DNA of 64,000 nt, taken from a candidate division WOR-3 bacterium. Its GTDB lineage: Bacteria; Hydrothermota; Tepidihabitantia; SM23-42; JAOAFX01. Each line of letters starts with the position of its first letter. Position 1 is the stretch's first letter. The stretch covers positions 11,229-75,228 of the forward strand of contig JBDRWD010000004.1 of NCBI GenBank assembly GCA_039802205.1, given 5' to 3'. Below are positions 15,201 through 47,313 of this stretch, piece by piece. Below the pieces are notes generated by a model. The model worked only from the letters and a program-made list of their open reading frames with translations. It searched no databases and was not told the origin of the DNA. A program made the position numbers and the translations under genes.

Positions 15201-15727
15201 ATTTCAGTAGTGATGCAACTCCAGTACTACTTAAGATTGTACTGTATGAGCTGCGTAGAAGTGATGGTGCAGTTTTAAACTCAGTTACCCTACCGGGCTG
15301 GAATGTCCGTGGTGTGGAGTATGACCCACGCGATGGTAATTACTGGTTGACGATTGCTCAAAACCCCAACCGGGCGATTGTTAAAATACTCGGCTTCCGT
15401 GGTATTCCAGGAGTGGGTATTGATGAAGAACTGCAACCAGGACCGCTTGAGAAGATAAGCCTTTCCCCTGGTATGCCGACGCCCTTCAAAAATACCGTGA
15501 AATTCAATTATTCGGTGCCGGTCAAGATGAGAGTGCGACTTGCGGTTTACGATATCACAGGAAGACATGTTAAGACATTTGTGAACGGTGAGGTGGAGCC
15601 GGGTACCCAGACAATAATTTGGAATGGAATGGACGAGAATAATAAACGGTGTGCGAGTGGTGTCTATCTCTGCTACATGGAGACAGAACATGGTTCCGTT
15701 GTCCGGAAGTTCGTGATGTCGAAATAA
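12254..15727 (+). CDS. S8 subtilisin-family serine peptidase with a T9SS C-terminal sorting domain (secreted cargo).
   Basis: The Asp/His/Ser triad is present: VVNTADTG, SWHGTHTAG, GTSMATPCAAG. The C-terminal roughly 80 aa are a Por_Secre_tail-like domain (PTPFKNT...LAVYDITGRHV...WNGMDENN...SGVYLCYM). RBS AAAGGAGGA. Confidence 0.9.
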   Translation: MGLLLVALIVVNESCLVAYQSGTYTPPYLPEYDYIAIAGYYFNPRERLPEIPVELTGESDYYLIHIKGPVYEDMKKTIEAQGVKLIQYIPFNAFIARMDRSKKDLVEGLSFVNWIGNYEPAYKISTLFKELPDEDEWLVFPFPDENIYLLKRKLENLGCKILEISDDDYCRVIKIQSERNHLNTIARMTEVMYIEPYLQPVAYNQSAQWVTQTWKQVDRRIWRKNLMGQGQVVNTADTGILTSHDMFRDPAVSITTWGNYPTHRKIIAYLQPTGSSAAFGDNAGGSWHGTHTAGTICGDDSYVNGTNPNDGMPLKAKMFFMDIGTSTGSLSVPSNLANLYLPPYNGNAGGAARISSHSWGSTSGAGSYTSYCVTTDSFMWRNRDFLICYAAGNSGPGSNTVYPPGTSKNILTVGATMNSTAAIYMADFSSRGPTADNRIKPTVTAPGYFLFSSVGPNNNSYLGMAGTSMATPCAAGNAAIVRQYFAKGFYPSGDSNPANAWSFIPASLVKAIIINGAHPSIAGSTIPDNNTGWGRVCLDDALFFSGDVRKLWVTYDSVATGQFDEFTITVNNQSEPLKITLVWTDYPATAGASVTLVNNLDLRVTSPTGTVYLGNVYSGGQSAPGGSADNRNVEECVRRNVPEIGNWVIRVTGTNVPQGTNQPYALVVSGGLGPTTSPVLHIAGQRIYDPPPGGNFNGRCDAGETVYLIDTLRNLSNVGVTNCVGVLRKTSSYITLIDSVGNFGDIAVGGTAHNGGSPFRFSISSTTPAGTFVDFILHLTGGGGYVQDIEFSLEVGINEVHVIWGPKTVQVAPGDTHFLYGLGYNPQNNRLYVCNFYRRTTGIVMYTSDSNVTYLGTIPAPDSCPTDIKYCAYDNTFWVAADPNPTAPSRIIYKINTSGTVLRQFANPANDYPTGLAWMPTSRWLYAADRRTSAGATPIIYRCDTLGGNVSSVNLTIGDNYGPRGLAIEPYGPDTTLLLVYTHFSSDATPVLLKIVLYELRRSDGAVLNSVTLPGWNVRGVEYDPRDGNYWLTIAQNPNRAIVKILGFRGIPGVGIDEELQPGPLEKISLSPGMPTPFKNTVKFNYSVPVKMRVRLAVYDITGRHVKTFVNGEVEPGTQTIIWNGMDENNKRCASGVYLCYMETEHGSVVRKFVMSK

Positions 15728-20320: not shown

Positions 20321-20414
20321 CAGGATGAAGAAAAAAAATATAATTGGGAGATGAAAGGGGGTGAGAAAAATAAAAAACATGAGAGAAAATAATTATCAAA
20401 AGAAAGGAGTGGCT

Positions 20415-24996: not shown

Positions 24997-25033
24997 AAAT
25001 GGGGCAGGGTTTCACCCTGCCCCATTTTGTTTT
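24997..25033 (+). terminator. Rho-independent terminator after the S8 paralog.
   Basis: AATGGGGCAGGG-tttca-CCCTGCCCCATT stem followed by TTGTTTT. Confidence 0.7.
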
Positions 25034-25052
25034 CCAAACCGGAGGTGTTGAA

Positions 25053-29578: not shown

Positions 29579-29617
29579 AATGACCTCCTTATTCTTAACC
29601 TGGTTTATAATCATCGT

Positions 29618-32044
29618 CTATTCAATCTTTATTATTTTTTTCTTAATTTCTCCTATTTTACTTCCTTTTAATACAAAAAAGTAAATGCCAGATGGCAGAA
29701 GATTGCCATCCTGGTCTAATCCATCCCAGTTTAGGGTTGTATTTTTCTCTCTCAATGGACCAGAAAATAACCGCCGAACAGATTGCCCTAATGCATTTCT
29801 AATTTCACATTCAATGTCTGTCTTAAATTGAAGACTTATGTCAATTTGAATTCGGTCGCGAAATGGATTTGGTCCTAATGATATCTGGATATTCTTTTTA
29901 TTTTCGGTATTTTTTTCTTCTACAAAATACCCAATCGTATCAACCTGTAATTCCACATAATTGGAATAAAGCGAATGATGACAAGCCGATTTACTTTGAC
30001 GATAAGCAAGCACATGTGCAATCCACTGTGAATCAGCTGGCAATAACGGTACTTTTTCAAGATTCTTATGTGGCAAATCAGTATACCATTCAGGATAATA
30101 TTCATTTATCTTTCTTTTATTCCATTCTTTCAGATAAGCAACATGGATTGAATCATCAGGATAATGTCTTTTTACATCCCCTTTTATGAAAGCCAGAACA
30201 ATATCCCAGATTTCTTTAAAAGACAACGGGAAATCCCATTTAGACTTTGCTACAATCCGCGCAATGATAGCCCCAATCAAACCCGGTATTTTATCATAAG
30301 GATACCAGCACATACCATTGCCCACAAGCACACCTGCCATCCCTTTAAAAGGCAAGGGCTCTATTGAATAGGCATAAGCCCGACCAGGTAATGCTTCTTT
30401 ATAGTAACCATAAACATAAATAATATAATCCCTTGTCCAGCCAGGTTTTAAGGAAGGCAATGAACTGGCATCAAAACCTAAATCAATCTCATCCCCATGA
30501 TGCATAATTACAAAACAATCATCAACTCCTTTTAATAACGGCTGGACATCACCATATTTTGTTGCATTTCCAAAAACCGCAGGGAAATCATTATCAACAA
30601 GTTGATGATAATGATACTCACCAGGATATTTACCATCTTTAGAATAGTAGGCACCATAACCATAGTAATGCAAGTCTGCATATTTTAATGGCACCTCAAA
30701 TATTGCATAATCAGTGTGGGTATTTTCTTCTATCCAGACCTTATCCACATAGACGACCTCATCAAATGTAATCCGCAAACGATGGTCATCAGTCAGAAAG
30801 ATTGACCTCCCTTTTTTATCATAGAGTGGAAAGACCATCGTCTTACTCGTCCCTGCAGGATAACCACAATACCCGATTTTTTTCCAGCGTCCATCCTTGC
30901 CAATCACCTCAACCTTAGGGAATTTGATAGTCCTCCCTCTTTGTTTCAAGCGGTAACGCAAACTCACATAGTCATAGACATCATCGTCAGAAAACCGTGT
31001 GGAACCATTGAGGAATAAGACTGCCTTTGCTGGATTCATTAACTCACCAAGGTCAAACTCAATTATTAAAGGATCATTGAAAGAAAAAGGCACATAGTTT
31101 CGGTCAGTTTCTTTTATATAATTTAACACATCCTTTCCATCAACCGTGCGCGCGGCAATCGGCAATTTCTTCTCAATGGTTGCAAAAATTTTGAATGGAG
31201 GTGGTGGAAAGATTGCAGCTTCATTAGGATAAATAGCCACCCCTTCAGGATGGTCAACCGCCAGGAGTTTGACCTGGTCAATATATGAAACCTCAGGTTT
31301 CATCTCATTCAGTTTAATAGAAATAATTCCATTATCTTTCGTCTTGATCTGATGGGAAGGAATCTTAAGATATTCATCAGGGTCGATGGGCATATAAATA
31401 TTAAACCCGGCTATTCTATCTACCCATAATCCCAGATTGGCACTGGCGATCACATCACCAACAAATTCATATTCCTTACCATTCCAGGAAAAGAGCAAAG
31501 GACATGAACCTTTATAAGCCTCAGCTGCCAAGAAGGTATAGGAACTATCATTTATAATCCAGTCAATGGTATCACTCGCAGTACAAACCCAGGATAACAA
31601 TGTGTCAGTATCTCCACTGATCGCCGGGCTATAGAACCAGTGAGAACTATCTCCCCTTGTATCATAAATAAATAATTGAGCAACAGGATGGTATGTACCA
31701 GCCCTATGGCCATACCATCTGAAGGTCATCCGGGCAATTTTATTAATAGGTTCATTTATTCTAAAACGATACAATTGGGTCACAAATCTTGTGGTATCTG
31801 GATTATATGTAATCCACCACAATGTATCAAAAAAAGCGATTGCATTTTTTTCTTCTGGAGTTGCAGGTTGATAACCAGGGTTCCCAGGTTTTAGTTGAGG
31901 CGGTGCCCGGCTGTCTGAGGGATTCTTCCATGCCTCACTTCCAGGGCTCTGGATTGTATAGATAATCTGACTCCAGACTGGGGAGGTAAAAAATAACACA
32001 ATCATTACCACCCCTACAAGGATAACAAGATATTTTTTGGCCAT
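29618..32044 (-). CDS. Secreted protein of unknown function with a T9SS C-terminal domain.
   Basis: A signal peptide is predicted to be cleaved at VWS|Q. No recognisable catalytic motif was found. A clear C-terminal domain is present: NPFRDR...IRNALGQSV...SGIYFFVL. Start at ATG 32044. Confidence 0.6.
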   Translation of the reverse strand: MAKKYLVILVGVVMIVLFFTSPVWSQIIYTIQSPGSEAWKNPSDSRAPPQLKPGNPGYQPATPEEKNAIAFFDTLWWITYNPDTTRFVTQLYRFRINEPINKIARMTFRWYGHRAGTYHPVAQLFIYDTRGDSSHWFYSPAISGDTDTLLSWVCTASDTIDWIINDSSYTFLAAEAYKGSCPLLFSWNGKEYEFVGDVIASANLGLWVDRIAGFNIYMPIDPDEYLKIPSHQIKTKDNGIISIKLNEMKPEVSYIDQVKLLAVDHPEGVAIYPNEAAIFPPPPFKIFATIEKKLPIAARTVDGKDVLNYIKETDRNYVPFSFNDPLIIEFDLGELMNPAKAVLFLNGSTRFSDDDVYDYVSLRYRLKQRGRTIKFPKVEVIGKDGRWKKIGYCGYPAGTSKTMVFPLYDKKGRSIFLTDDHRLRITFDEVVYVDKVWIEENTHTDYAIFEVPLKYADLHYYGYGAYYSKDGKYPGEYHYHQLVDNDFPAVFGNATKYGDVQPLLKGVDDCFVIMHHGDEIDLGFDASSLPSLKPGWTRDYIIYVYGYYKEALPGRAYAYSIEPLPFKGMAGVLVGNGMCWYPYDKIPGLIGAIIARIVAKSKWDFPLSFKEIWDIVLAFIKGDVKRHYPDDSIHVAYLKEWNKRKINEYYPEWYTDLPHKNLEKVPLLPADSQWIAHVLAYRQSKSACHHSLYSNYVELQVDTIGYFVEEKNTENKKNIQISLGPNPFRDRIQIDISLQFKTDIECEIRNALGQSVRRLFSGPLREKNTTLNWDGLDQDGNLLPSGIYFFVLKGSKIGEIKKKIIKIE

Positions 32045-32074
32045 ATTACACCCCTTTTTATTTTTGTCCATTTT

Positions 32075-33745
32075 TTATTTCAACTTGATAACCTTTCCTA
32101 TCTTTATGCATCCCCCATACTCAAACTTAACAAAATAAACGCCCGCAGGTAATTTGCGATCCGAATCATCAGAACCGTCCCACACAACCGTTGACTGTTC
32201 ACCGTTTACCGTTAACCGAGAAAGATCTTTAACCATTCTACCGCTTACATCGTATATCGCAAGGCTGAAGCCTTGCCCGACATTTCCGTTTGGATTTTGG
32301 GATTTGGTGCTTGGGATTTGAAATTTAATAACACAGTGATTCTGGAATGGATTCGGTAATACGTTGAGCGAGATTATCATATTTTTCGTCTTGCTTTGTT
32401 CATGGATACCGGTCGTTGCCTGTAATGCCTTCCAGACATTCAACCTTCCCCAACCATAATTATTATTCGGATATGGTGCACCAGGAGCAGGTCTATCTGC
32501 ATTATTGAGCAGAATATTATAAATCTCAGTAACTGAAAGATTTGGATTCTTCTCAAAAAGTATTGCTACAGCACCGGTGGCATGGACACAGGATAATGAA
32601 GTTCCATGGATTGTTGTGTATTGCTGATTGAGCCAGGCAGTTCTTATACTATAACCAGGTGCGCACAAATCCGGTTTGGTCAAATTCCAGTCATTCCGAT
32701 ACCAGTATGTAGTATCATTCCAAGGGACACTATCAGGTGCTGGACCACGCGAAGAAAACGATACGATTGTATCATTGACATTCGTTGCCCCGATGCCCAG
32801 CACCGTTGGATAGTTGCCTGGAGTATTTGTAGTCATTGAACCAGGACCGGCATTTCCAATTGAAAAGACTGGCAAAATTTCAAGTGATTTCAGGGTATTA
32901 CAGATATCCCACCAAGTGAGGTCAAATTGATTTGAACTCCCCCAGGCATTGTTAATTGCCCTAATATCAAAACCGGAATCCACTTTTAAAGTAGCGAACC
33001 ACTGTAATGCAACAATTGGGCTAACATTACCTCCGATCATTGCAACACATAATTTTACATCTGGGGCTACACCGATATCATCGGTAAACGGACCCAATCC
33101 ATCACCACCACATATAATACCAGCACAGGCTGTGCCATGACCATTGTCATCGTATGGATATGGGATACCATGCCAAAAATCCCGCCATTTTATCAACTTA
33201 CCGCCCCGCAATGCGGGATGGGTTGTATCTAGTCCAGTATCAAGCATACCGACTATTATACTATCGCCAGTATATCCATAATACCAGCAGGAATCCGCCA
33301 TTATTCGCTGAATGTTCCATTCAGGAGTGCGCGATGTTGTTCCTGATTCTTCTATGATGGGAATTGGTTTGACTTCAGGGATATGGGATATCAATCTTAC
33401 CGACGGATGACGGGCAAGTTCTTTTATAACTCGCACACTCGCCCTTAAATATATCCCATTCACAATCCAGAATTGCAAAACAGAATCTATTTCCCCGGGA
33501 AATCTTTTCAAAAACTCCATAATTGGCTTCTGGCTATCTCTGGCGATTGACTTGAATACTTCTGCCTTTTGTTTTATGGTCAGGTCTCCAAGTGTATTGT
33601 CAGGATAAGGTTGATTGATAATAACTAAAACCTCAATTCTTGTATCGTTGCTAATCTTTATTAGTTGTTCTTGTAGTTGTGGTGAAATGTTTTCCTGTCT
33701 TGCTTCCAATCCAAATCCAACAAGTATTAATAGAACTAACCACAT
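32075..33745 (-). CDS. S8 subtilisin-family peptidase with a T9SS C-terminal domain.
   Basis: GMLDTGLDTTHPAL (Asp), GHGTACAG (His), GTSLSCVHATG (Ser). The C-terminal domain ends NPFQNH...LAIYDVSGRMV...GVYFVKF. A signal peptide is present and the RBS is GGAGGA. Confidence 0.85.
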   Translation of the reverse strand: MWLVLLILVGFGLEARQENISPQLQEQLIKISNDTRIEVLVIINQPYPDNTLGDLTIKQKAEVFKSIARDSQKPIMEFLKRFPGEIDSVLQFWIVNGIYLRASVRVIKELARHPSVRLISHIPEVKPIPIIEESGTTSRTPEWNIQRIMADSCWYYGYTGDSIIVGMLDTGLDTTHPALRGGKLIKWRDFWHGIPYPYDDNGHGTACAGIICGGDGLGPFTDDIGVAPDVKLCVAMIGGNVSPIVALQWFATLKVDSGFDIRAINNAWGSSNQFDLTWWDICNTLKSLEILPVFSIGNAGPGSMTTNTPGNYPTVLGIGATNVNDTIVSFSSRGPAPDSVPWNDTTYWYRNDWNLTKPDLCAPGYSIRTAWLNQQYTTIHGTSLSCVHATGAVAILFEKNPNLSVTEIYNILLNNADRPAPGAPYPNNNYGWGRLNVWKALQATTGIHEQSKTKNMIISLNVLPNPFQNHCVIKFQIPSTKSQNPNGNVGQGFSLAIYDVSGRMVKDLSRLTVNGEQSTVVWDGSDDSDRKLPAGVYFVKFEYGGCIKIGKVIKLK

Positions 33746-33843: not shown

Positions 33844-35190
33844 TTAAAATACTACAAATTTTTTCGTAAAGCTTTCTCTTCTATCAGGATAAAATTTAAT
33901 AAAATAGCATCCTTTCACTAATTTGGGAAGTTCTATGACCGAAGAGCAAATATCACTTTTCTCAAAGACTTTTCTACCGAGGGCATCAAAGATTTCAATT
34001 TTATTATATCTCTCTCTGTTTCCAAGGTTAAATTGGATTCTTTTGCCTGACGGGAAGATAGTAGGTGAACTCTGATTATTCAATGCAATATCTCGCTTTT
34101 CCTCAACCGCTACATTCAACGGCGTATATCTGAATGCGGATAATCTTGTGCCACCTGCATAACCCCATCTTGAATTGAACATATCCATTCCCAATGGTGA
34201 ACAACCCCAGGGACTGTTATCAAATATCACAGTATCCACAAGCCATTGATTTCCACTGTTGGTCGTTTTTAAGAAGATACTAAAATGGCTTCCCTCCCAG
34301 CCGGCACGATTACCACCGCCAACGGCAAATCCATTCTGATTATCAACAAATTCAATCGCATATAAGCCATATTTACCAATGGATACCGATGGTCCCATTA
34401 CTTCAACCCAATTGTTTCCGCCATCGGTTGTTCTGAAGAAAATTCCGGGTGATGCAGAATCCCTTAATCCGCAGACCCAGCCATTGAGGTTATCAATAAA
34501 ATGGACACCATAAAATTGATACATCGCATTTGAAACTTGTGCGGTCCAGCTGGTCCCACCATTTGTTGTATGGAGAATCAATCCATTTATTCCCTGATGA
34601 TTTATTGTGTCATAATCACCACCCACAATCCAGCCCTCATTGGGATTGATAAAATAGATGCTTTTTAAAGAACCGGAGACTGGTGCACTCTGGGTAGTCC
34701 AGGAAGAACCACCGTTGGTTGTTTTTCTAATATCGCTGTTTGCACCGGCAATCCAGCCGGTATTCGCATCAAGGAAGAATACATCATCCCACATCTTACC
34801 GATGAATTCAAAAGTCAAACCATAGATATTCGTCCAGGAATTACCGCCATCAGTAGTTTTGTAAACAACTGCTGCGGGAAAGAGATTAGCTATTATTCCC
34901 ATTGCTGTAAGATAGCCGATACTGGTATTGACAAAATCCATCCCGAAGACAAACATGCACTGGTTGATGGTCCAGGGACGTATCTCCTGCCAGGTATTAC
35001 CGCCATCCGTCGTTTTATAAATAATCCCTCCCACCTGGTCTCTCACACCACAAAGAATACCTATCATGGAATCAGGCGCTGCGGCATCCAGAAATCCATT
35101 ATCTGTTGGCTCATAATGGCGTGTTTCCCATCTTGATATGCCAAAGAGCCCCCATGTGAGAGTAACGTACATTATAAAAAATTTTTTCAT
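33844..35190 (-). CDS. BNR/Asp-box beta-propeller protein (Ycf48/sortilin-like) with a T9SS C-terminal domain.
   Basis: Six repeats of the pattern YKTTDGGNTW / TTNGGSSW / TTNGGTSW / TTDGGNNW, plus a signal peptide. The C-terminal domain ends IEIFDALGRKV...GCYFIKF. RBS AAGGAGGAATT. Confidence 0.7.
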   Translation of the reverse strand: MKKFFIMYVTLTWGLFGISRWETRHYEPTDNGFLDAAAPDSMIGILCGVRDQVGGIIYKTTDGGNTWQEIRPWTINQCMFVFGMDFVNTSIGYLTAMGIIANLFPAAVVYKTTDGGNSWTNIYGLTFEFIGKMWDDVFFLDANTGWIAGANSDIRKTTNGGSSWTTQSAPVSGSLKSIYFINPNEGWIVGGDYDTINHQGINGLILHTTNGGTSWTAQVSNAMYQFYGVHFIDNLNGWVCGLRDSASPGIFFRTTDGGNNWVEVMGPSVSIGKYGLYAIEFVDNQNGFAVGGGNRAGWEGSHFSIFLKTTNSGNQWLVDTVIFDNSPWGCSPLGMDMFNSRWGYAGGTRLSAFRYTPLNVAVEEKRDIALNNQSSPTIFPSGKRIQFNLGNRERYNKIEIFDALGRKVFEKSDICSSVIELPKLVKGCYFIKFYPDRRESFTKKFVVF

Positions 35191-37991: not shown

Positions 37992-38855
37992 ATGGACATT
38001 AATCAATATCTTACCGAGAAGAAACAGTTGGTGGATGCGGCGCTGAAAAAATACTTCAGTGATCGTAACCAATTTTTTGAAGTTATGTATTACTCACTTG
38101 ACCGGGGTAAGAGGATAAGACCCATCTTAACTATTGCCAGTTATGAGGCAAATGGAGGCACCAATGTTGAGGAGATAATGTCTATTGCCTGTGGTCTGGA
38201 ATTGATTCATACCTACTCGCTTATCCATGATGACCTTCCCGCAATGGATAATGATGATTACCGCCGGGGTAAGGAATCTGCCCATAAAAAATTCGGTGAA
38301 GCAATGGCTGTGCTTTCTGGGGATGGATTATTTGCCTATGCTTTTGAATTGTTCACCGAGTCAGAAGACCATCTTAAAGAGCGCTATCGGGTGATAAAAG
38401 AAGTAAGCCTGGCGGTTGGGCCTAAGGGGGTAGTTTATGGCCAGGTGCTGGATATCCAATCCCATCCTGAAATCAATCCAAAGATGTTGCGTCAGATTCA
38501 TCTTAATAAAACCGCTAAATTCATTGCGTTGGCGATAAAAGCTGGCGCAATTATGGCCCAAGCTCCTGAAGCACGCATAAGAATTCTGGAAAAAGGAGGA
38601 GTATATCTAGGGATATTATTTCAATATACCGACGATATTCTTGATGTAACCGGCAAAAAAGAAAAATTGGGCAAAACGCCCCAAAAGGATATTCTCCAAG
38701 AAAAACTCACTGCCCCAAGAGTTTATGGACTCTCTGGTGCTCGATTCCGTGCGCAAAGATATGCCTGCCTGGCAAAGAATACTTTTAACCAATTGGGCAA
38801 GAATTTTGAGATATTCAGTGCGCTCACGGATTTTGTCCTGAATCGGTCGTTTTAA
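37992..38855 (+). CDS. Polyprenyl diphosphate synthase (FPP/GGPP synthase family).
   Basis: First Asp-rich motif LIHDDLPAMDNDDYRRG and second Asp-rich motif QYTDDILD. Confidence 0.9.
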   Translation: MDINQYLTEKKQLVDAALKKYFSDRNQFFEVMYYSLDRGKRIRPILTIASYEANGGTNVEEIMSIACGLELIHTYSLIHDDLPAMDNDDYRRGKESAHKKFGEAMAVLSGDGLFAYAFELFTESEDHLKERYRVIKEVSLAVGPKGVVYGQVLDIQSHPEINPKMLRQIHLNKTAKFIALAIKAGAIMAQAPEARIRILEKGGVYLGILFQYTDDILDVTGKKEKLGKTPQKDILQEKLTAPRVYGLSGARFRAQRYACLAKNTFNQLGKNFEIFSALTDFVLNRSF

Positions 38856-38916: not shown

Positions 38917-40776
38917 ATGGCCCTCCTTGAAAAGATAAACGGACCTGCAGATTTAAAGAAATATCCGGTTGAGCAACTCCAGGTGCTTGCCCGGGAGATA
39001 AGAGAGGAAATCATAAAAACCGTATCTCAAAATGGAGGGCATCTGGCACCTTCACTCGGGGTTGTGGAATTGACGCTGGCAATTTATCGGGTTTTTGATG
39101 CCGAAAGAGATAAAATAATCTGGGATGTGGGACACCAGACCTATGCCCAGAAGTTGATCACGGGAAGAAGAGATAAATTCCACACCTTGCGCACATATAA
39201 TGGGATTAGCGGATTTCCCAAACGCGAAGAGTCAAAATATGATCATTTCAATACCGGTCATTCTTCTACTTCGCTGTCGGCCGCTGCTGGTTTTGCCATT
39301 GCCCGGGATTTAAAAGGGGAAGATTATCATATCATCAGTGTTATCGGTGATGGTTCTCTGGGTGCAGGCATGGCATTTGAGGCTTTAAATCACATCGGAC
39401 AATTGAAAAAGGATGTTATCGTTGTTTTAAATGACAACGAGCGTTCGATCGGGGAGACGGTGGGAGCATTATCTCAGTATCTGACGAAGATTATAACAAC
39501 CCGCACTTATAACCGGTTCCGTGACGACCTTTGGGTTTTCTTAGGTAGATTTCCACCTTACATCCGTGATCGGGCTCGAAATCTTGCCAAAAGAATTCAG
39601 GAGGGTATGAAAGGTTTATATTCTCCATCGGTGATCTTTGAGGAACTTGGTTTTCGTTATATAGGACCTTTAAATGGTCATCAGTTGGGCGAATTGATTG
39701 ATACATTGTCACGGGTTAAAGAGATGCACGGACCCAGGTTGGTCCATGTGGTGACCAAGAAGGGGAAGGGATATAAGATTGCCGAAGAAGCACCCGAAAA
39801 ATTTCATGGCATTGGTCCATTTGATATTGCCACGGGCGAAGAAAAACAGAAACTCAATTCGTATACTAAAGTCTTTGGCGATGCCTTGGTGAAATTTGCG
39901 GAAAAGAACAAAAAAATTGTGGCGATTACCGCGGGGATGTGTTTGGGCACTGGTTTAAAAGAATTTTCATTAAAATTTCCGGAGCGGTTTTTTGATGTAG
40001 GTATCTGTGAACAACATGCGGTAACGATGGCTGCGGCACTGGCGCTTGAGGGCTATATTCCCGTTTGTGCAATATATTCGACTTTTCTCCAGCGGGCCTA
40101 TGACCAGGTTATACATGATGTTTGCCTTCAAAAGGCGCCTGTGATATTTGCGATTGATCGGGCCGGACTGGTCGGTGAAGATGGTCCTACTCATCACGGT
40201 CCGTTTGACCTTTCTTTTCTAAGTTGTATACCCCATATGGTAATAAGTGCACCGAAAGATGGGGCAGAACTGGTCGCCCTGTTGAAGACCGCGATTGAGT
40301 ATCGTGAAGGTCCTTTTGCCATTCGCTATCCCCGCACTTCGTGTTCCTTACCGGAGAGTTCAGATATCCAGACTGTGGAAATTGGAAAATGGGAAATTCT
40401 CCATCCGGGACAGGAATATGCCATTATTGCCTGCGGGACGATGGTCAAAACAGGTCTGGAGACAATAAAATTATTAAAGAAAAATAGAATAAATCCTTAT
40501 CTCATCAATGCTCGTTTCGTTAAACCCCTTGATTTTGAAATGCTTGATACACTGATTGCAAAATTAAAGTCAGTTTTTGTTCTTGAAGAAAATTCTTTCA
40601 TAGGTGGTTTAGGAAGTGCTGTGGCGAATTATCTGGTAAATAACAAATTGCCGGTTAAAGTCCACACCATTGCCCTGCCAGATCGTTTTATACCTCACGG
40701 ATCAAGGGAAGTTTTACTCAAGGTGGTTGGGCTTGACAGTGAGACTATAGCAGATAAAATTATGAAATCGTTATGA
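38917..40776 (+). CDS. dxs: 1-deoxy-D-xylulose-5-phosphate synthase.
   Basis: The TPP-binding region GHSSTSLSAAAGFAIARDL...GDGSLGAGMAFEALN is present, with a transketolase-like C-terminus. The length of 619 aa fits. Confidence 0.95.
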   Translation: MALLEKINGPADLKKYPVEQLQVLAREIREEIIKTVSQNGGHLAPSLGVVELTLAIYRVFDAERDKIIWDVGHQTYAQKLITGRRDKFHTLRTYNGISGFPKREESKYDHFNTGHSSTSLSAAAGFAIARDLKGEDYHIISVIGDGSLGAGMAFEALNHIGQLKKDVIVVLNDNERSIGETVGALSQYLTKIITTRTYNRFRDDLWVFLGRFPPYIRDRARNLAKRIQEGMKGLYSPSVIFEELGFRYIGPLNGHQLGELIDTLSRVKEMHGPRLVHVVTKKGKGYKIAEEAPEKFHGIGPFDIATGEEKQKLNSYTKVFGDALVKFAEKNKKIVAITAGMCLGTGLKEFSLKFPERFFDVGICEQHAVTMAAALALEGYIPVCAIYSTFLQRAYDQVIHDVCLQKAPVIFAIDRAGLVGEDGPTHHGPFDLSFLSCIPHMVISAPKDGAELVALLKTAIEYREGPFAIRYPRTSCSLPESSDIQTVEIGKWEILHPGQEYAIIACGTMVKTGLETIKLLKKNRINPYLINARFVKPLDFEMLDTLIAKLKSVFVLEENSFIGGLGSAVANYLVNNKLPVKVHTIALPDRFIPHGSREVLLKVVGLDSETIADKIMKSL

Positions 40777-43700
40777 TATTTTTTGTCATCTTTGTTTTCA
40801 ACCAATTCACTATGCCCTACGAAACAAAAGCCTTTATTACTTCTGATGGCGAATACATAGTATATCTCCGCTATTATCAAGGGGAATTTATTGGGATTGA
40901 CAGTATTATTCCCGTAAATGACTACTTTGCTATCGGTTTGAAAAAGAAAAATCAAAAAATGATGCTCAAAGAATTACAAAGTGATTTGATGAAGAAAGGG
41001 GGTTACGCAAATAAAGGATTGTTTGGAACCATCGAGATACCTTTGCCCAAGGGCGGTTTTAGCGACTTTATGGGTGAAACCGGAAAACTTGATGTGGGTG
41101 GTTACATTAAAATCACACTGGGGGGCACGGAAACCTTTTATTCTAATCTGCCAGCGGAACAACAGCGACCTTCACTTCTGCCGGAATTAAAAATGGAACA
41201 GGAAATGGCGGTAAATCTTGATGGCGAAGTTGGTGACCGTATGCGGGTTTTCATTGACCACAATTCTACAAGAGTTGACGAAACTCAAAATAAGATTCGT
41301 GTTACCTATAAAGGAAAAGAAGACGAAATACTTCAGGAACTCGAAGGAGGTGATACTCAACTATCAATTCCCGGCACAAGTTACACAGGTGATATTCCAG
41401 CACACCAGGGATTGTTTGGTTTAAAATCCACCGCCAAGTTGGGACCGGTGGATATCGTGGCAATTGCATCCCGGGAGCAAACCCAGTACAGTGAACAGGA
41501 GATCACCGGGGGCATTGAAAGTATGTATGATACAATCTGGTCTAAAGATTATGCTAAGCGACAATTCTTCTGGCTGGGGACAACTGACTCCATTATTGAA
41601 CTGAGGGTTTATATCGATGATGGAAATAACGCGAACAATAATAATGGGATTACGCGCTATGCCCGGGTGTATCTTGACCTGAACGATGATAATGTCCCCG
41701 ATGATACTCTGGAAAAAGAAGAAGGTTTTTTCACCTTGAAATACGAAGGTTTAGAACAGGATTATCAGTTTTTTGGGCGCCGGGTCAATATCATTGAGTT
41801 AAAAAATGGACTTTATAATAATCTGGAGGCATTGGGAGTTTACTACCGTAAGATCAACAGTCTGGGGCAGGAAGATACGGTGGGTTTCATTGGCGCGGAC
41901 ACATTGTGCTTGAAACTGATCTGTCCACGAACCTCACGGGTGACTTCACTAGCCTGGCGCAATTATGAGTTAAAAAACTATTATCCCGTTGCCAGTCCAG
42001 GGGAGAAGGTTGACACCCTAATGATTTATCACGATGTTGGGAGTGGTATTGATGAATACATCTATCAAGGGCGCACCCTGTTGTCGATACTCGGACTGGA
42101 TAAGGACAACAACAACGAGGTAGATCCCTATGGAGGATTTGGCAGTGGAGGATACGATTTAAACCGCGGGCTGCTTATTTTTCCAGAACCAATGCCGTTT
42201 GTGAATAGCGGACTGCCTGAGCCTGATTCCGAGGTTTACACTAATCCGTTTTATTCTATCCATCGCGGTAAGTACTACATCTACACTAAAACCTTTCAGG
42301 TAAAGAAAACTTTCCCTATCCCATTCAACACCAAACATGTGCGAGTTTATGTCAATGATGTAGAACTTGATCCTGCGGAATACATCGTGGACTACGATAT
42401 GGGAAAAGTTGAAATTATGAGGCCCATCTCGCGTACCGACCGCGTCCGGATACAGGCAGAATACAGCGCGCCTTTTTCCGCGACACAAAAAAGCCTAATC
42501 GGTATGCGGGCAAATTCGAAAATCTTCGGGGAAGGAAGCATTGGTTCTTCTTTTTTCTACCGGACCGAGTCCTATCAAATGGCACCATACGAGCATATCC
42601 GCTTTAACGAGGAGCCTTCCAATCGGATGGTCTGGGAGATGGATTTTGCCGTTCCAGGTAAAATCCCTTATTTAACGGAATTTATTGATAATCTGCCTTT
42701 GGTACAAACCGAAGCCGAATCAAAATTCAATATCAATTTTGAAGGGGCATATTCATTCTCTAATATCAACTCCCGGAATGCTGTATATCTTGATGATTTT
42801 GAGGCTACCTCCATTAATTATTCAGCGGTTTTATCAAAGAGTTATTGGTATCCCTGTTCTAAACCGGTGAATTGCGATACAAGCAATTTTGCCCGGAGAC
42901 GTCTGATCTGGTTTACACCTACCGGTGGTAATGTTTTTAAAATGGAAGATATTTATAATAATCCTACCGATCCCCAAGCGATTGCCGAGGTTTTACAAAT
43001 TCAGTTCACTCCGGATAACAGACAATCGTTTGCCGGCTTAACCCAATACCTAACAAGTGTGAATCTCGACGAATGTGAGAATATTGAATTGATCATAAAT
43101 GGCAGTGGAGGGAAGGTCCACATCGATGTTGCTGAGGAAATCAGCGAAGATCAGTTACGGCGCAACAAAAAAGGTGAAATTGTTGGATTGGGCACCTTTG
43201 AAGATGAAGATAACAATCCACGCAATTTTTCTTGGGATGCGAATAATGAAGATCGGGGATTGGATAATGTTTTTGGTAATGATGCTGATAATGTCCCCGG
43301 AGATGATGGTAATGATGATTATATTGAAAATGACTATTATCACGGCGGCATAAATGGGACAGAAAAGAACAGGATCTGGGATACCGAAGATATTGATCGG
43401 AATGGCATTTTTAATCTCAGCACAAATATTTACTACAGTTTTTCAGTACACCTGGATTCGAGCCGATATCTGGTAGAAGGGGGATTGAAAAACAACTGGA
43501 AGATGTTTCGGATACCATTGAAAGATTCCCTGGCCCGCGATACCGTCTTTGGTCTTCCTAACTGGCAGAATATTAAATTTGTCCGTATCTGGTTTGATGA
43601 TTTTACTGCGCCCCAGACCATTTATCTTCATAAACTTAATTTTACGGGCAGTCGCTGGAAGAATTATGGTGTAGTATCTGAAGATTCGCTCAATCCGGTG

Positions 43701-46214
43701 GATACCACGGAAAAATTTATCATTACCCCGGTGAATACCGAAACTCACACCTATTATAAACCGCCCTATCCCTTACCTATTGATCCTTTTACAGGGAAAA
43801 CGATTAATGAAGGGGGATTAGAATTAACCCTTCATGAGGTGAAAAAAGGTCATACCTGTATTGCCTACCGGCGTATTGAAACTCCGGAGGATTACCGCGG
43901 ATACGACACTTTGATTTTTTATTTTCGTACTCTTCATTCCAACCCGCAAATCGCCTTGCGTTTCGGTTCGGATTCAATGAATTATTATGAATACCGGACC
44001 GATTACGATGCTGGAGCAGTGGAATATAATAACTGGCGCAAATACCAGGTTGTTATAGCTCATTTCCCGGAACTGAAAAAGAAGACAGGCGGCATGGGCA
44101 TACTCACCGAAGGGAATTATACAGTCTCCGGCAACCCCTCACTGCAAAGTAATAGATTTTTTGAAATAAGGATTACCAATAATTTTACCACTTCCCTTTC
44201 TGATACAATGTGGTTCAATGATATAAAACTTTCTTCGCCGAAGAATGAAGTGGGTCGAATAATGAGATCCAGTGGTTTTTTGAATATTGCCGACCTTTCC
44301 AACATTACTTTTTCCTATTCAGAATCTAATGGGCGATTCAGACGACTCTCCGAAGCAAGGGGAATTTCGGAGTCCGGCCCGGGCAAAAACTTTGCACTCA
44401 ACACCGGTCTGACATTAAATAAGTTTCTGCCGCAAGATTGGAATTTCAGCATTCCGATTAACTTTGGTTTTAATAGAAGTATTCAGGAACCGCGATATTC
44501 TTCATTTATTGCCAAGGATGTAGAACTGGATGATTCAGCACGAATGATGGAACGCGCAACCAGCACCATCGCGGGCTATAACCTGAGTTTTTCCAAATCC
44601 GGTTCAAAGAATTGGTTATTGAAATATACCCTGGATAATCTGAGGTTATCCCACGATCGGACGGTTTCCACCTCAAATACTGCGCCGCAAATTGATACCA
44701 CCGATTTTAGAAATTACCATGGTGAATACAGCCTCAGCCCTAAATTGTCACTCAAACTGCTAAGACAAAAAATCGAACTTCTGCCGCAGACAATGTCCTT
44801 TACTTCTTCTTATACCGATAATCGAGCAAAAAGGTATGTTCGGGATAGTCTTAATCAACCCTACGAAATCAGCCCTGGTTATCCTCAACGTCGGAGAACA
44901 TTGAGCCCTGGTTTCTCAGTAAGTTATTCTCCACACCAGATTATTTCAACTTCTTATTCCTTTTCTCAAATTCGTGACTCAGTATCCCAGAAATGGCGGT
45001 TCGGTGATGAAGTCAGCCGAAATCAGACATTCAATAGTCGCATTGCCAAAGAACTGTTAATAGTCAATCCCTCACTCCAGTTCAGTTCCAGTTATAATGA
45101 GGACCATCGTTTTGAATGGCGCCATCCTTATGACCGTCGGGGCGTGAATAACAGCTCCAATATCAGTCTTTCTACCACCGCTGATATTAAAAAGGTTATC
45201 AAATTCTTTACCCATCTTCGGGATGAAACAAAAGATAGCCTCCAGCTGCCTGGTTCTCCTTTGTGGATTGTAAAACAGATAGAAACATTTGTCGATTTCA
45301 TTCAGAATCCAAGTTTTGGTTTTTCGCGGAGCCGTGCCTCTGGTTATTCCACGCTCGTCCGACCAGATTTTAGGTACCAATGGGGATTAGTCGATACAAT
45401 CCCGGTAGCACAACAGGATTCTAATAGTTATGGCACCCGGAACATTTCGGATAATTTTAATGTAAACTCTGGAATAAACTACGCAATTTTGAGTTTGACC
45501 GGGAGTTATACCAAACAGTTGACCCGCAGTTTCACCTATAGCGGTATGGAGAATAAAAATGTGAGTGAATCATATCCCAACGCCAGTTTACGGATCTCCC
45601 GGGTGGAGAGAATCCCTTTCTTAAAAGAGTATGCCTACACTTCCTCCGTGAACTTAGGTTTTAACCAAAATCTGATACGTCTTTATCAGAGAACGGCTGA
45701 TACCCTGGAACGGTTGATCTCGGATAGTCGAGTTCTTTCATTTAATCCACTGCTGGGCTGGCAAACGAACTGGAAACGCGGAATTACCAGCAATGCCAGC
45801 ATCAGTTATTCTGAAACGATGGGGCATCAATATTCAGACCTTTTTATTAATCCCTCCAAATCAATCAATTGGAGCGGTTCTCTTTCTTTAGCCTATACCT
45901 TTAGTGCCCCCAAAGGGTTGGCGATCCCGCTCCTCCAAGGTATCAGGTTTGCTTCAAATCTAACTACCAATCTCACCTATAGTTATAATCGAAACATCTC
46001 TTATGCCGCTTCGGTGGAAAATCCCAATTATTTGGATACCAGGACCCCAGTGGTTGATAATACCACCAGCAACATTGATATTTCTTTAAGTTATAATTTT
46101 TCGACGAGCGTCACCGGTGGTGCTAATCTCAATTATTCGCGGAATCAGGACCGAATTTATAATAACAGTTATCGGCGGATAGGTGTAAACATATGGGCAA
46201 ATATCAATTTTTAA
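40773..46214 (+). CDS. Giant (1813-aa) outer-membrane beta-barrel protein, candidate SprA/Sov-like T9SS translocon.
   Basis: It has a hydrophobic N-terminus. The last roughly 900 aa are rich in S/T/N/Y with alternating amphipathic beta-strand patterns and end in a classic OMP beta-signal, ...RIGVNIWANINF (terminal Phe). There is an acidic D/N-rich segment at about 43200-43340. The size class and the context (T9SS cargo, PorX/PorY-like genes, a glutaminyl-cyclase-like gene next door) fit SprA. Assignment by homology is not verifiable here. Confidence 0.5.
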   Translation: MIFFVIFVFNQFTMPYETKAFITSDGEYIVYLRYYQGEFIGIDSIIPVNDYFAIGLKKKNQKMMLKELQSDLMKKGGYANKGLFGTIEIPLPKGGFSDFMGETGKLDVGGYIKITLGGTETFYSNLPAEQQRPSLLPELKMEQEMAVNLDGEVGDRMRVFIDHNSTRVDETQNKIRVTYKGKEDEILQELEGGDTQLSIPGTSYTGDIPAHQGLFGLKSTAKLGPVDIVAIASREQTQYSEQEITGGIESMYDTIWSKDYAKRQFFWLGTTDSIIELRVYIDDGNNANNNNGITRYARVYLDLNDDNVPDDTLEKEEGFFTLKYEGLEQDYQFFGRRVNIIELKNGLYNNLEALGVYYRKINSLGQEDTVGFIGADTLCLKLICPRTSRVTSLAWRNYELKNYYPVASPGEKVDTLMIYHDVGSGIDEYIYQGRTLLSILGLDKDNNNEVDPYGGFGSGGYDLNRGLLIFPEPMPFVNSGLPEPDSEVYTNPFYSIHRGKYYIYTKTFQVKKTFPIPFNTKHVRVYVNDVELDPAEYIVDYDMGKVEIMRPISRTDRVRIQAEYSAPFSATQKSLIGMRANSKIFGEGSIGSSFFYRTESYQMAPYEHIRFNEEPSNRMVWEMDFAVPGKIPYLTEFIDNLPLVQTEAESKFNINFEGAYSFSNINSRNAVYLDDFEATSINYSAVLSKSYWYPCSKPVNCDTSNFARRRLIWFTPTGGNVFKMEDIYNNPTDPQAIAEVLQIQFTPDNRQSFAGLTQYLTSVNLDECENIELIINGSGGKVHIDVAEEISEDQLRRNKKGEIVGLGTFEDEDNNPRNFSWDANNEDRGLDNVFGNDADNVPGDDGNDDYIENDYYHGGINGTEKNRIWDTEDIDRNGIFNLSTNIYYSFSVHLDSSRYLVEGGLKNNWKMFRIPLKDSLARDTVFGLPNWQNIKFVRIWFDDFTAPQTIYLHKLNFTGSRWKNYGVVSEDSLNPVDTTEKFIITPVNTETHTYYKPPYPLPIDPFTGKTINEGGLELTLHEVKKGHTCIAYRRIETPEDYRGYDTLIFYFRTLHSNPQIALRFGSDSMNYYEYRTDYDAGAVEYNNWRKYQVVIAHFPELKKKTGGMGILTEGNYTVSGNPSLQSNRFFEIRITNNFTTSLSDTMWFNDIKLSSPKNEVGRIMRSSGFLNIADLSNITFSYSESNGRFRRLSEARGISESGPGKNFALNTGLTLNKFLPQDWNFSIPINFGFNRSIQEPRYSSFIAKDVELDDSARMMERATSTIAGYNLSFSKSGSKNWLLKYTLDNLRLSHDRTVSTSNTAPQIDTTDFRNYHGEYSLSPKLSLKLLRQKIELLPQTMSFTSSYTDNRAKRYVRDSLNQPYEISPGYPQRRRTLSPGFSVSYSPHQIISTSYSFSQIRDSVSQKWRFGDEVSRNQTFNSRIAKELLIVNPSLQFSSSYNEDHRFEWRHPYDRRGVNNSSNISLSTTADIKKVIKFFTHLRDETKDSLQLPGSPLWIVKQIETFVDFIQNPSFGFSRSRASGYSTLVRPDFRYQWGLVDTIPVAQQDSNSYGTRNISDNFNVNSGINYAILSLTGSYTKQLTRSFTYSGMENKNVSESYPNASLRISRVERIPFLKEYAYTSSVNLGFNQNLIRLYQRTADTLERLISDSRVLSFNPLLGWQTNWKRGITSNASISYSETMGHQYSDLFINPSKSINWSGSLSLAYTFSAPKGLAIPLLQGIRFASNLTTNLTYSYNRNISYAASVENPNYLDTRTPVVDNTTSNIDISLSYNFSTSVTGGANLNYSRNQDRIYNNSYRRIGVNIWANINF

Positions 46215-46984
46215 AATTGTCATTTATTTATGGGATAATAGCGGTGATACTTTGGGCAAAAGAACCTTATGATTATTTAATTGAATATTGTAAATTTGGG
46301 AGCCGGGCCATCGGTACGGAAGGGCATAGGAATGCCTTGAATTACATCGTCAAAAACCTCAAAAATCCGGAAATAGACTCTTTTATCGTGGATGGTGTGT
46401 GGCTATATAATCTCCAACAAAAATTTCCGGCGGGTGAACCTCTTATCGGCATTGCTGCGCACTGGGATTCTGATCGCAACTGTCCTGGAGCTAACGATGG
46501 TGGTTCGGGTGTGGCATTACTTCTGAAACTTGCCGATACCCTCTCCAAAAATCCTCCGGAACTGAGTGTCCATCTGCTGTTTTTTGATGGCGAAGATGTG
46601 GAAAAGGCCGAGCTCTACGGTTCAACCCATTTTGCCAATAAATGTCTGGATCAGTATTCTTTTGTGATAATAATTGATATGGTTGGCGATAAAGATTTAC
46701 AGATTTATAAAGAAGGACATTCTACAAAATTCTTCCCCGACTTAGTTGATTCGCTCTGGCAAATCGCCCGGGAAGCAGCGCCGGAGATTTTTCTTTCTAA
46801 TGTAAAATACTACATCATTGATGACCACATGCCACTGATAAAATACGGAATAAGGGCGGTGCTTATTATTGATTTTGATTATCCTTACTGGGATACGCCC
46901 TTCGATACAGTGGATAAATGTAGTAAGGAAAGTTTAGAGAAAGTTTATCAATTCCTTTTGAAGATAGTTTATCGCAATTATTAA
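46193..46984 (+). CDS. M28-fold mono-zinc enzyme resembling animal-type glutaminyl-peptide cyclotransferase (QC).
   Basis: AAHWDSD...GANDGGSGVALLLKLADTL has a single Asp, as in the QC motif GATDSAVPCAMMLELARAL rather than the aminopeptidase motif GADDxxSG. FFDGEDVE compares with QC FFDGEEAF, and IIDDHMPLIKYGIRAVLIID compares with QC DDHIPFLRRGVPVLHLI. The ORF overlaps the 3' end of the SprA-like gene. Confidence 0.6.
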   Translation: MGKYQFLKLSFIYGIIAVILWAKEPYDYLIEYCKFGSRAIGTEGHRNALNYIVKNLKNPEIDSFIVDGVWLYNLQQKFPAGEPLIGIAAHWDSDRNCPGANDGGSGVALLLKLADTLSKNPPELSVHLLFFDGEDVEKAELYGSTHFANKCLDQYSFVIIIDMVGDKDLQIYKEGHSTKFFPDLVDSLWQIAREAAPEIFLSNVKYYIIDDHMPLIKYGIRAVLIIDFDYPYWDTPFDTVDKCSKESLEKVYQFLLKIVYRNY

Positions 46985-46995
46985 TAATAAAATCG

Positions 46996-47313
46996 ATGAA
47001 CAAAAAAGAGATAGTAATTCTGGCCATTATCAGCGTAGTCTATTTGGCAATAAATATCTGGAATTACTTCCGATACCACTCCCTGAAGCAGAGTTATCAA
47101 TTGATTATCACTGAAGAACTAAAACAAATTTCAATCAACACCGCCAGTCAACATGAACTGGAAAGCATTCCGGGCATTGGTCCGGCTTTAGCCCGGCGCA
47201 TCATTGAGTATCGGGAAAAGAACGGAGGCTTTCGGACCGTAGAAGATCTCAAAAAAGTAAAAGGGATTGGAGAGAGGTTGTTTGAAAAACTCAAACCCTA
47301 CATAACCTTGTAA
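46996..47313 (+). CDS. comEA: ComEA-like helix-hairpin-helix DNA-binding protein.
   Basis: N-terminal TM helix and tandem HhH motifs: INTASQHELESIPGIGPALARRIIEYREKNGGFRTVEDLKKVKGIGERLFEKL. Confidence 0.75.
   Translation: MNKKEIVILAIISVVYLAINIWNYFRYHSLKQSYQLIITEELKQISINTASQHELESIPGIGPALARRIIEYREKNGGFRTVEDLKKVKGIGERLFEKLKPYITL

Follow-up and report, generated by a model that had tools for sequence, protein, structure and literature searches.

A type IX secretion translocon gene overlapping a glutaminyl-cyclase-like gene in a candidate division WOR-3 bacterium

The closest described relatives of the two proteins considered here are SprA of Flavobacterium johnsoniae (FjSprA) and Sov of Porphyromonas gingivalis, the outer-membrane translocons that belong to type IX secretion systems (T9SS), and the bacteroidal type II glutaminyl cyclases (QCs), including PgQC of P. 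gingivalis. In P. gingivalis the QC gene shares its operon with PG2158 and hemG and not with sov (PMC10653852), and pyroglutamate has been reported to stabilise the exported proteins of this species, with no role in directing T9SS targeting (PMC5837995, PMC10653852). The authors of the "Q-rule" described the co-occurrence of T9SS and pyroglutamylated exports, found no mechanistic link between them and took the rule to be specific to Bacteroidetes (PMC5837995, PMC10653852). Our literature searches found no paper linking sprA or sov to a QC gene or to a gene of peptidase family M28, and nothing relevant on WOR-3 and T9SS or on T9SS in other phyla of the Fibrobacteres-Chlorobi-Bacteroidetes (FCB) superphylum. 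Here we describe a sprA gene whose 3' end overlaps a gene for a QC-like M28 protein in a candidate division WOR-3 bacterium (assembly GCA_039802205.1, contig JBDRWD010000004.1). The window is the whole analysed stretch of 64,000 nucleotides (nt), and all positions are counted from its first letter. Both proteins are of known kinds. Three features are new: the gene pair is widely conserved outside Bacteroidota, one WOR-3 clade has a loop-deleted QC with Asp in place of His, and a conserved Gln follows a minimal SprA leader.

The gene pair comprises the following features:
40773..46214, + strand: sprA, T9SS outer-membrane translocon SprA/Sov in a compact form of 1813 amino acids (aa), from family, profile and fold matches
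46188..46211, + strand: SprA C-terminal beta-signal NIWANINF, seen in the translation
46193..46984, + strand: type II glutaminyl-cyclase-like M28 protein of 263 aa (Pfam Peptidase_M28, 103.8 bits), from profile and fold matches
46193..46214, + strand: overlap of sprA and the QC-like gene, 22 nt, with the QC-like ATG embedded in the Ile-Trp codons of the beta-signal (AAC ATA TGG)
46181..46185, + strand: AGGTG, a putative Shine-Dalgarno-like motif within sprA, read from the sequence, 7 nt before the QC-like ATG

Both open reading frames (ORFs) begin with ATG, and they are not chance ORFs, because they are long, match their families strongly and each have about 120 close homologues. Both have counterparts of 100% identity in WOR-3 metagenome-assembled genomes at NCBI, in which the small protein goes under the name "M28 family peptidase"; for the large one, close homologues bear the name "hypothetical protein".

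The identification of the 1813-aa protein as SprA/Sov is virtually certain. It scored 322.7 bits against the NCBIfam equivalog model TIGR04189 (T9SS outer membrane translocon Sov/SprA; cutoff 200) and 72.6 bits against Pfam SprA_N (PF14349; cutoff 27), and NCBIfam and Pfam scans gave no family match other than the SprA models. When the single sequence was searched against the PDB, F. johnsoniae SprA was the sole match (1e-29). A profile built from a 16-sequence alignment of the WOR-3 SprA family matched F. johnsoniae SprA (6h3i) at an E-value of 2.9e-95 in three collinear segments (42-287 on 58-299, 307-1077 on 403-1397 and 1120-1485 on 1474-1903), and the last 330 aa gave no significant sequence alignment to 6h3i with this profile. 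An AlphaFold2 (AF2) model of aa 614-1813 had a mean pLDDT of 82.4 and was almost entirely beta, its last 670 aa forming about 27 long strands; FjSprA (PDB 6H3I/8GL8) has a 36-stranded barrel, and the count given here comes from this partial model. In a Foldseek search of the PDB the model matched the SprA chains 8gl8_A (1.1e-53), 8gl6_A, 6h3i_A and 6h3j_A at E-values of 1e-53 to 1e-44, with query-normalised template modelling (TM) scores of 0.55-0.58.

Another giant envelope protein, such as a TamB-like protein, an autotransporter or an LptD-like protein, would share the size and the C-terminal aromatic residue, and nothing else speaks for such a protein. The Foldseek matches following the SprA chains were carbohydrate-binding module domains and SusC, LptD and TonB-dependent barrels at 1e-4 or worse (1e-3 or worse for the three kinds of barrel). 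We therefore give this alternative practically no probability; the TamB and autotransporter readings were ruled out, as only SprA families were matched and the fold fits SprA chains alone. The preliminary description of this DNA, made from the sequence alone, had called the protein SprA/Sov-like and pointed to its C-terminal signal, and both points hold. The translation ends in ...RRIGVNIWANINF*, the terminal Phe is invariant in the 16-sequence alignment and the C-terminal consensus is VGxNxWVNINF.

The same description had remarked that the protein is shorter than the Bacteroidetes form. This is correct (1813 against 2403 aa in FjSprA), but it is not an anomaly: about 1800 aa is the normal size of a WOR-3 SprA, and all close homologues are 1793-1813 aa long. 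Across 64 complete loci the stop-free sprA ORF varies continuously from about 1750 to 2640 codons, with the query clade the shortest and those of Ignavibacteria and Bacteroidetes at 2225-2391 codons. Since the protein is collinear with FjSprA, the shortfall of roughly 590 residues is distributed over many shortened inserts and does not represent one lost domain. The query resembles SprA and Sov in its end-to-end homology in the same order, its C-terminal aromatic beta-signal, a predicted C-terminal 1200 aa that superpose on the SprA barrel only, and its location among genes for cargo with the T9SS C-terminal domain (CTD). It differs in its length, in a 10-aa leader without a charged n-region, and in being followed by a cyclase gene, a neighbour that P. 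gingivalis sov does not have.

We next consider the 263-aa protein, which very probably belongs to the bacterial type II QC group. No NCBIfam model captures it (its sole match was dapE, at 16 bits). As a single sequence it matched TfQC (6qro) best in the PDB (6.5e-21), followed by 7d18, BtQC (4fuu) and 7d1b, with the aminopeptidases 2ek8 and 6hc6 at about 1e-11 and human QC at about 5e-6. With a 35-sequence profile of the M28 family the eight best PDB matches were bacterial QCs (3.2e-35 to 1.6e-25) and the first aminopeptidase (2ek8) followed at 1.5e-15. An AF2 model (pLDDT 84.5) gave 26 best Foldseek matches that were all QCs, namely the bacterial enzymes BtQC, PdQC, Fimbriiglobus ruber QC, TfQC, PgQC and Acidobacteriales QC and after these the QCs of insects, a flatworm and ticks, with the aminopeptidase SgAP first appearing at rank 27. 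The residues that bear on the classification were assigned from sequence alignment and not from model coordinates:
46460..46462, + strand: His90, second-site ligand position in an HWDS motif, directly after which the clade loses a 13-aa loop
46496..46501, + strand: Asp102-Gly103, metal-ligand Asp followed by Gly as in bacteroidal QCs (Asn or Asp at the Gly position in aminopeptidases)
46592..46597, + strand: Glu134-Asp135, catalytic Glu and metal-ligand Asp, the bacterial-QC "ED" form of human E201-E202 (alignment; PMC7948796)
46676..46678, + strand: Asp162, equivalent of human QC Asp248
46820..46828, + strand: Asp210-Asp211-His212, the D-D-H motif, in which Asp210 corresponds to human QC Asp305
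46889..46894, + strand: Trp233-Asp234, a conserved Trp and the third metal-ligand position, here Asp and in all solved QCs His

The features that separate QCs from M28 aminopeptidases are an Asp/Glu-or-Asp/His ligand triad and a catalytic Glu and Asp (Taudte et al., PMC7948796), together with a residue other than Asn or Asp, such as Gly or Ser, after the first ligand Asp and a Trp, Tyr in aminopeptidases, before the last ligand (PMC7948796). The preliminary description had called the protein glutaminyl-cyclase-like on the grounds of mono-zinc rather than di-zinc motifs. The QC call stands, the protein being closest to type II QCs in sequence and fold, but the argument does not: true QCs keep all five classical M28 ligand positions, and all five are filled here as well (H90, D102, D135, D162 and D234). 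Genuine QCs, the human enzymes included, keep the second-site residues and can bind a second zinc (PMC13424184; PDB 7d21). The proposal that a full di-zinc ligand set would speak against a QC was therefore invalid and would have wrongly rejected the call, which rests on a ligand Asp followed by Gly, on the D-D-H motif and on a Trp that precedes the last ligand, not on zinc-count motifs.

We think it very unlikely that the 263-aa protein trims exported proteins or peptides as an ordinary di-zinc M28 aminopeptidase. Its NCBI name, the potential ligands at all five di-zinc positions and the single-sequence matches to 2ek8 and 6hc6 fit such an enzyme, and the di-zinc M28 aminopeptidases (SgAP 1CP7, Aneurinibacillus 2EK8, YwaD 6HC6) do have the M28 fold and the five ligand positions in common with the query. 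They lack the QC hallmarks, however, and their E-values with the family profile are poorer by about ten orders of magnitude, while the query is without the aminopeptidase hallmarks (a ligand Asp followed by Asn or Asp, an E-E pair, a Tyr that precedes the last ligand), has those of QCs including D-D-H, and finds only QCs among its 26 best fold matches. The window holds an internal control for this pattern: at the positions in question a second M28 protein, LapA-like and CTD-bearing (24999..27656), has the residues of an aminopeptidase (D-N, E-E, S-D-I and Y-H).

The bacteroidal type II QCs (PgQC 6QQL, TfQC 6QRO, BtQC 4FUU/7D1D, PdQC 3TC8) are the best matches to the query, with TM scores of about 0.8 and 25-28% identity. 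They share with it the Asp-Gly turn at the ligand, the E-D pair, the D-D-H motif and a Trp that precedes the last ligand, and the query also has a predicted leader for export as they do; they differ in being about 310-330 aa long; PgQC is a lipoprotein, whereas the query has no lipobox Cys. The QCs of Fimbriiglobus ruber (7D1B) and Acidobacteriales (7D18), reportedly solved by Huang et al. in 2021 as bacterial QCs from outside Bacteroidota, have the same fold and are about as close to the query (profile E-values 6e-28 and 8.5e-29). To our knowledge, neither has a link to T9SS genes. The query and 7D1B have a short "IDFDY-x-xW" segment before the last ligand in common; both 7D1B and 7D18 have His at that ligand position and keep the longer loop, whereas the query has Asp and lacks the loop. 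Human and animal QCs (QPCT, 2AFM) are about 21% identical to the query, with D159/D102, E201/E134, D248/D162, D305/D210 and W329/W233 as matched positions, human E202 corresponding to Asp135 and H330 to Asp234.

The small protein begins with a hydrophobic leader (aa 1-22, ...ILWA|KEPYDY), without a lipobox, and homologues carry AxA-like sites at this place (..TNA|K, ..LHA|R, ..ALA|K). We also observed that Cys33, Cys97, Cys151 and Cys243 are invariant or nearly so in the WOR-3 cyclase clade, with Cys97 five residues before the ligand Asp102. These four residues may form two disulfides, and their conservation fits an oxidising compartment and a periplasmic location.

To examine the pairing of the two genes across lineages, one GTDB genome per species was scanned with the SprA alignment, and the best 80 of 568 confirmed matches were taken as loci. 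This sample leans to relatives of WOR-3 SprA and includes only one Bacteroidetes locus. Six-frame ORFs of the loci were searched with the M28-family profile, and a locus was counted as informative when at least 1.2 kb followed the sprA stop (n=63). An M28 homologue lay immediately 3' of sprA on the same strand in 38/63 informative loci:
Query WOR-3 clade, including the deeper-branching locus L051 (43% identity): 12/12
Marinimicrobia/Fidelibacterota: 10/10
Zixibacteria-like: 10/13
Gemmatimonadota, KSB1, Fibrobacteraceae and Ca. Zhuqueibacter: adjacent M28 in one locus each
Unclassified bacteria: 1/5 (L052)
Ignavibacteria: 1/5
Second WOR-3 clade/"Stahlbacteria": 0/9
Calditrichia: 0/2
Cloacimonadota, Hydrothermota and Bacteroidetes: 0 in a single locus each

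All of the sprA-linked M28 proteins bear the QC signature, and negative loci had no M28 match elsewhere within +/-10 kb. The first possible M28 start lay within +/-30 nt of the sprA stop in 29/38 loci; the spacing is -22 nt in 10/13 loci of the query clade and -1, -4, 0 or +1 in many Marinimicrobia and Zixibacteria. The linked SprA proteins outside the query clade are 23-30% identical to the query. The retention of the pair at this identity, among otherwise unshared neighbours, argues for selection on the pairing and suggests an old tie between translocon and cyclase. It may be added that the start codon of the cyclase is formed from the Ile-Trp codons of the SprA beta-signal (ATA TGG); the protein motif and the -22 nt overlap, both of them conserved, constrain each other over 46188-46214.

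The N-terminus of SprA carries a further feature:
40773..40805, + strand: SprA leader MIFFVIFVFN followed by the conserved Gln11, with a predicted signal-peptidase site N10|Q11, from clade conservation

This leader cannot be longer, because only 5 open codons precede the ATG. It is atypically short: in the query-clade loci with a complete N-terminus and an adjacent QC gene it consists of Met and 9-11 hydrophobic residues (10-12 aa in all) without a basic n-region, with N, G, A, T or S at position -1 and an aliphatic residue at -3, a pattern that fits cleavage by signal peptidase I just before Gln. Examples are MIFFVIFVFN|QFTMPYE, MTFILPVIIFA|QFMVPYE and MNLILSIILFS|QLSTPYE. Cleavage sites across the loci were read by eye and are predicted ones. 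Gln is at +1 in every query-clade locus with a complete N-terminus and an adjacent QC gene apart from L051, which has Asp (..GLVAA|DDF); the downstream-truncated L006 has Arg (..ALLFV|RFTLPYDE). Gln also follows a normal signal peptide in SprA of most Marinimicrobia (..YG|QG.., ..FG|QS..), of KSB1, Gemmatimonadota and Calditrichia, and of some other loci, while the SprA proteins of the second WOR-3 clade often have Tyr in its place (..LASA|YSLYD). These predicted N-termini make SprA itself a candidate substrate of the cyclase. A covariation of QC adjacency with the SprA Gln was considered and dropped, as QC-linked Zixibacteria are mostly without Gln and several unlinked lineages have it.

Taken as a whole, the reading that we favour, with moderate confidence, is that this locus encodes SprA together with a co-expressed QC-group enzyme that would cap exported proteins. 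The two genes would be transcribed together and translationally coupled, with translation of the QC-like gene linked to termination of sprA. The enzyme, exported by the Sec route through its N-terminal leader, would face the periplasm and turn N-terminal Gln exposed by signal peptidase I into pyroglutamate. Pyroglutamate would in turn shield the exported proteins from aminopeptidases, several of which are encoded as T9SS cargo in the window. Likely substrates would be SprA, with the Gln after its short leader, and a subset of the CTD cargo. The pair would represent an old unit retained in many FCB-superphylum lineages outside Bacteroidota, and the enzyme of this WOR-3 clade a derived form that has lost a 13-aa loop and has Asp, not His, as the third metal ligand. 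We think it moderately likely that it has kept its cyclase function and acts on SprA or cargo.

Several findings weigh against this reading, and the first lies in the active site itself. The zinc triad of known QCs (human D159/E202/H330; PgQC D149/D183/H299) is incomplete, with D102 and D135 present and the third His replaced by Asp234, and the clade is without the 13-residue loop HWDS-RPxADxDxDxxxxxx-P, which holds the conserved PgQC Arg118. The alignment to human QC and PgQC that the preliminary description recommended shows the hallmark residues and this substitution, which had been missed. Every solved QC reads "W-H-T" where the query reads "W-D-T". Position 234 is Asp in 115/121 and His in 6/121 close homologues, and it is His in 26/26 sprA-linked homologues outside the query clade. 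In a MAFFT alignment of 151 sequences (the query and 150 representatives at 50% identity) it is His in 141, and Asp with an otherwise intact pattern occurs only in the query's own 50%-identity cluster; in the two other Asp cases among the 151 the first ligand Asp is replaced by Asn. Bacteroidal QCs and the other sprA-linked proteins have the loop, and L051, the deeper-branching locus, combines it with His. Six short-loop sequences keep His, so the His/Asp state is independent of the loop deletion.

Judging from the alignment, the activity of the enzyme may be altered by Asp234 and the loop deletion. Could the WOR-3 M28 protein no longer be a zinc QC at all, and instead perform another chemistry, use another metal, or serve mainly as a structural periplasmic partner of SprA? 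The confinement of the intact-pattern Asp to one 50%-identity cluster, set against His in all solved QCs and 141/151 representatives, and the loss of a loop with a residue conserved in bacteroidal QCs are in line with such a change, and SprA of F. johnsoniae is known to take on accessory subunits that resemble enzymes, for example a peptidyl-prolyl isomerase (PMC10994853). On the other hand, D102-G103, E134-D135, D162, D210-D211-H212 and W233 are invariant in 121/121 close homologues, which points to an active site that works. Asp can serve as a metal ligand, the interchange of His and Asp at 234 within the clade is as expected for a position kept as a metal ligand, and QCs have been crystallised with Fe, Co or two zinc ions (7d2i, 9fxh, 7d21). 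The invariance of the other residues and this interchange suggest that the site still binds metal, and we regard the loss of QC character as improbable. No compensating His unique to the Asp234 clade was found; H45, H146 and H212 also occur in QCs with His234.

A second set of contrary findings concerns the cargo. The preliminary description had placed the pair in a window full of T9SS cargo, and eight ORFs did score above the cutoff of TIGR04183 (24.0-32.0 bits; cutoff 23). They are T9SS type A CTD cargo genes in two groups of four:
12254..15727, 15782..20320, 20361..24992 and 24999..27656, + strand
27659..29614, 29618..32071, 32075..33745 and 33844..35190, - strand

Gln is at the predicted +1 in 2/8 only, those starting at 24999 (..FSFA|QSN) and 29618 (..PVWS|QII); it lies one or two residues off the predicted site in 3/8 and is missing in 3/8. 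The suggested check of mature cargo N-termini therefore gave no clear Q-rule, and pyroglutamylation of cargo is weakly backed. With a crude signal-peptide heuristic, the query clade showed 12% Gln at +1 and a 1.35-fold enrichment of Gln after the hydrophobic core (p 0.06), and Marinimicrobia showed 37% and 1.82-fold (p 4e-5). This heuristic is noisy and underestimates, as Gln stood at +1 in 26% of its Ignavibacteria/Bacteroidetes control, for which about 70% has been published. Most Zixibacteria SprA proteins also have no Gln after the leader, despite an adjacent QC gene. In addition, mutagenesis in P. gingivalis was argued to show that pyroglutamate does not control T9SS targeting (PMC5837995).

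The neighbourhood of sprA provides a third. A comEA-like gene is an equally conserved neighbour, found next to sprA or to the sprA-M28 pair in about 30 loci, and the M28 gene is adjacent in none of the nine informative loci of the sister WOR-3 clade. The comEA-like gene directly follows sprA in L011, L012, L013, L021, L027, L028, L030, L045 and L072 and follows the M28 gene in L001-L008, L022-L026, L050, L056 and L067. The order is sprA-M28-comEA in several Zixibacteria as well as in the query clade and the Gemmatimonadota locus, and sprA-comEA without a gene between them in the second WOR-3 clade, Hydrothermota and others; Marinimicrobia are without comEA. The order ispA-dxs-sprA occurs in both WOR-3 clades only, and in the second of these (L010-L019, L027) the block ispA-dxs-sprA-comEA is kept with the cyclase gene missing from between. 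We know of no role of ComEA-like proteins in T9SS. The conserved comEA and the M28-less sister clade mean that adjacency alone is no proof of functional dependence, and part of the adjacency signal is an old syntenic block from which the QC gene can be lost.

From this it could be argued that the cyclase is a general housekeeping periplasmic enzyme whose place after sprA is inherited as part of a sprA-QC-comEA block and has no functional relation to the translocon or to type IX secretion. The conservation of comEA beside sprA about as often as M28, a block without M28 in the sister WOR-3 clade, in Calditrichia, in Cloacimonadota and in most Ignavibacteria, and the small share of cargo here with Gln at +1 all accord with mere inheritance, as does the P. 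gingivalis QC, whose gene is not near sov and whose substrates include most proteins cleaved by signal peptidase I (PMC10653852). Set against this, the pair persists at 23-30% SprA identity while all other flanking genes differ, stop and start overlap or abut in most lineages, as is typical of co-translated partners, and the SprA +1 Gln is widely conserved. We therefore consider inherited gene order unlikely as the full explanation, though it deserves serious attention, and prefer a functional tie between SprA and the cyclase.

The extent of the operon is the last of these points. The genes around the pair are as follows:
37992..38855, + strand: ispA (farnesyl pyrophosphate synthase, 281.5 bits), upstream of dxs
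38917..40776, + strand: dxs (TIGR00204, 827.5 bits), with a stop that overlaps the sprA ATG by 4 nt (ATGA)
46996..47313, + strand: ComEA-like helix-hairpin-helix protein with an N-terminal transmembrane segment (Pfam HHH_3, 91.9 bits; TIGR00426, 77.2 bits)

The comEA-like gene starts 12 nt past the QC-like gene and is followed by two ATP-binding cassette sugar-permease genes. A promoter and terminator scan of 37400-49800 gave 42 promoters against 29.9 +/- 4.9 in shuffled sequence and 16 terminators against 12.2 +/- 3.4. The promoter leads, at 37946-37973 before ispA and at 40733-40760 before sprA, are consensus matches only, from a scan scarcely above shuffled sequence. A promoter-like site with 11/12 matches lies inside dxs just ahead of sprA, and the scan does not establish the extent of the operon. 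The proposal of the preliminary description that translocon and maturation enzyme are linked in one transcription unit is supported by the 22-nt overlap and the conserved pairing, from which co-transcription itself is inferred; on this basis we think it highly likely that sprA and the QC-like gene share a transcript. That transcript would probably also include the upstream dxs and the downstream comEA-like gene and could start before ispA, inside dxs or at both candidate sites. No core T9SS partner gene (porK/L/M/N, porV, porU and others) was found among the window ORFs scanned, in a search that covered the window only; the partners known for SprA are PorV, Plug, PPI, SprE and SkpA.

Some further observations were made on the cargo genes. 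The protein encoded at 24999-27656 is the second M28 protein of the window, a LapA-like aminopeptidase (63.5 bits) with a T9SS CTD and the classical aminopeptidase pattern; it is the kind of secreted aminopeptidase against which pyroglutamate capping would protect. The gene at 15782-20320 encodes a 1512-aa CTD cargo protein with weak similarity to the PorU sortase (55 bits; cutoff 420) and to a T9SS-dependent M6-like protease. Its C-terminal half holds FG-GAP/VCBS-like repeats (SPAVGDVDRDGNLEI...), the stretch of most note being 18000-20000; where they lie, GC skew peaks sharply (0.44) and AT skew has a trough (-0.28), and no tandem DNA repeat was found in the repeat region of this gene.

Other parts of the window were also of note. 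Just upstream of the ispA-dxs-sprA block, at 35403-37643, lies a gene for a 746-aa protein in which a weak transposase-like N-terminal helix-turn-helix (IS481/IS3-type) is fused to tetratricopeptide repeats (TPRs) and a BTAD-like region, and L002 has a homologue in the corresponding position. On the - strand, 55532-56071, 56133-56618 and 56615-58852 form an envelope-biogenesis cluster. Its products are a protein that ends with a SecA-like zinc motif, a lipoprotein resembling LptE (38.9 bits) and a TPR protein of 745 aa whose repeats are YbgF/CpoB- and BamD-like. At 8260-9303 and 9300-10583 are two adjoining genes for proteins with the GWxTD domain, a domain of unknown function (TIGR04514, 110 bits; Pfam GWxTD_dom, 31 bits), the second of which has a hydrophobic N-terminus followed by Gln (..INFFV|QPV).

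In conclusion, our analyses allow the WOR-3 records named "hypothetical protein" and "M28 family peptidase" to be annotated as SprA and a QC-like enzyme. The clade-specific change from His to Asp is a natural experiment on the metal site of a drug-target family, which includes PgQC in P. gingivalis and human QC. One could go further and propose that pyroglutamate capping of SprA, and of some cargo, is needed for the stability or biogenesis of the translocon, and that WOR-3 has an all-carboxylate (Asp102/Asp135/Asp234) cyclase, possibly with a metal other than zinc. If the capping is needed in this way, that would explain the phylogenetic co-occurrence of T9SS and the Q-rule; this extension is tentative and we think it doubtful as it stands. 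The sprA-QC pair, whose stop and start codons overlap and which WOR-3, Zixibacteria, Marinimicrobia, KSB1, Gemmatimonadota and Fibrobacteraceae have kept, provides independent genomic evidence for an old tie between translocon and cyclase. It also opens the testable idea that SprA itself is possibly a key substrate of the cyclase.

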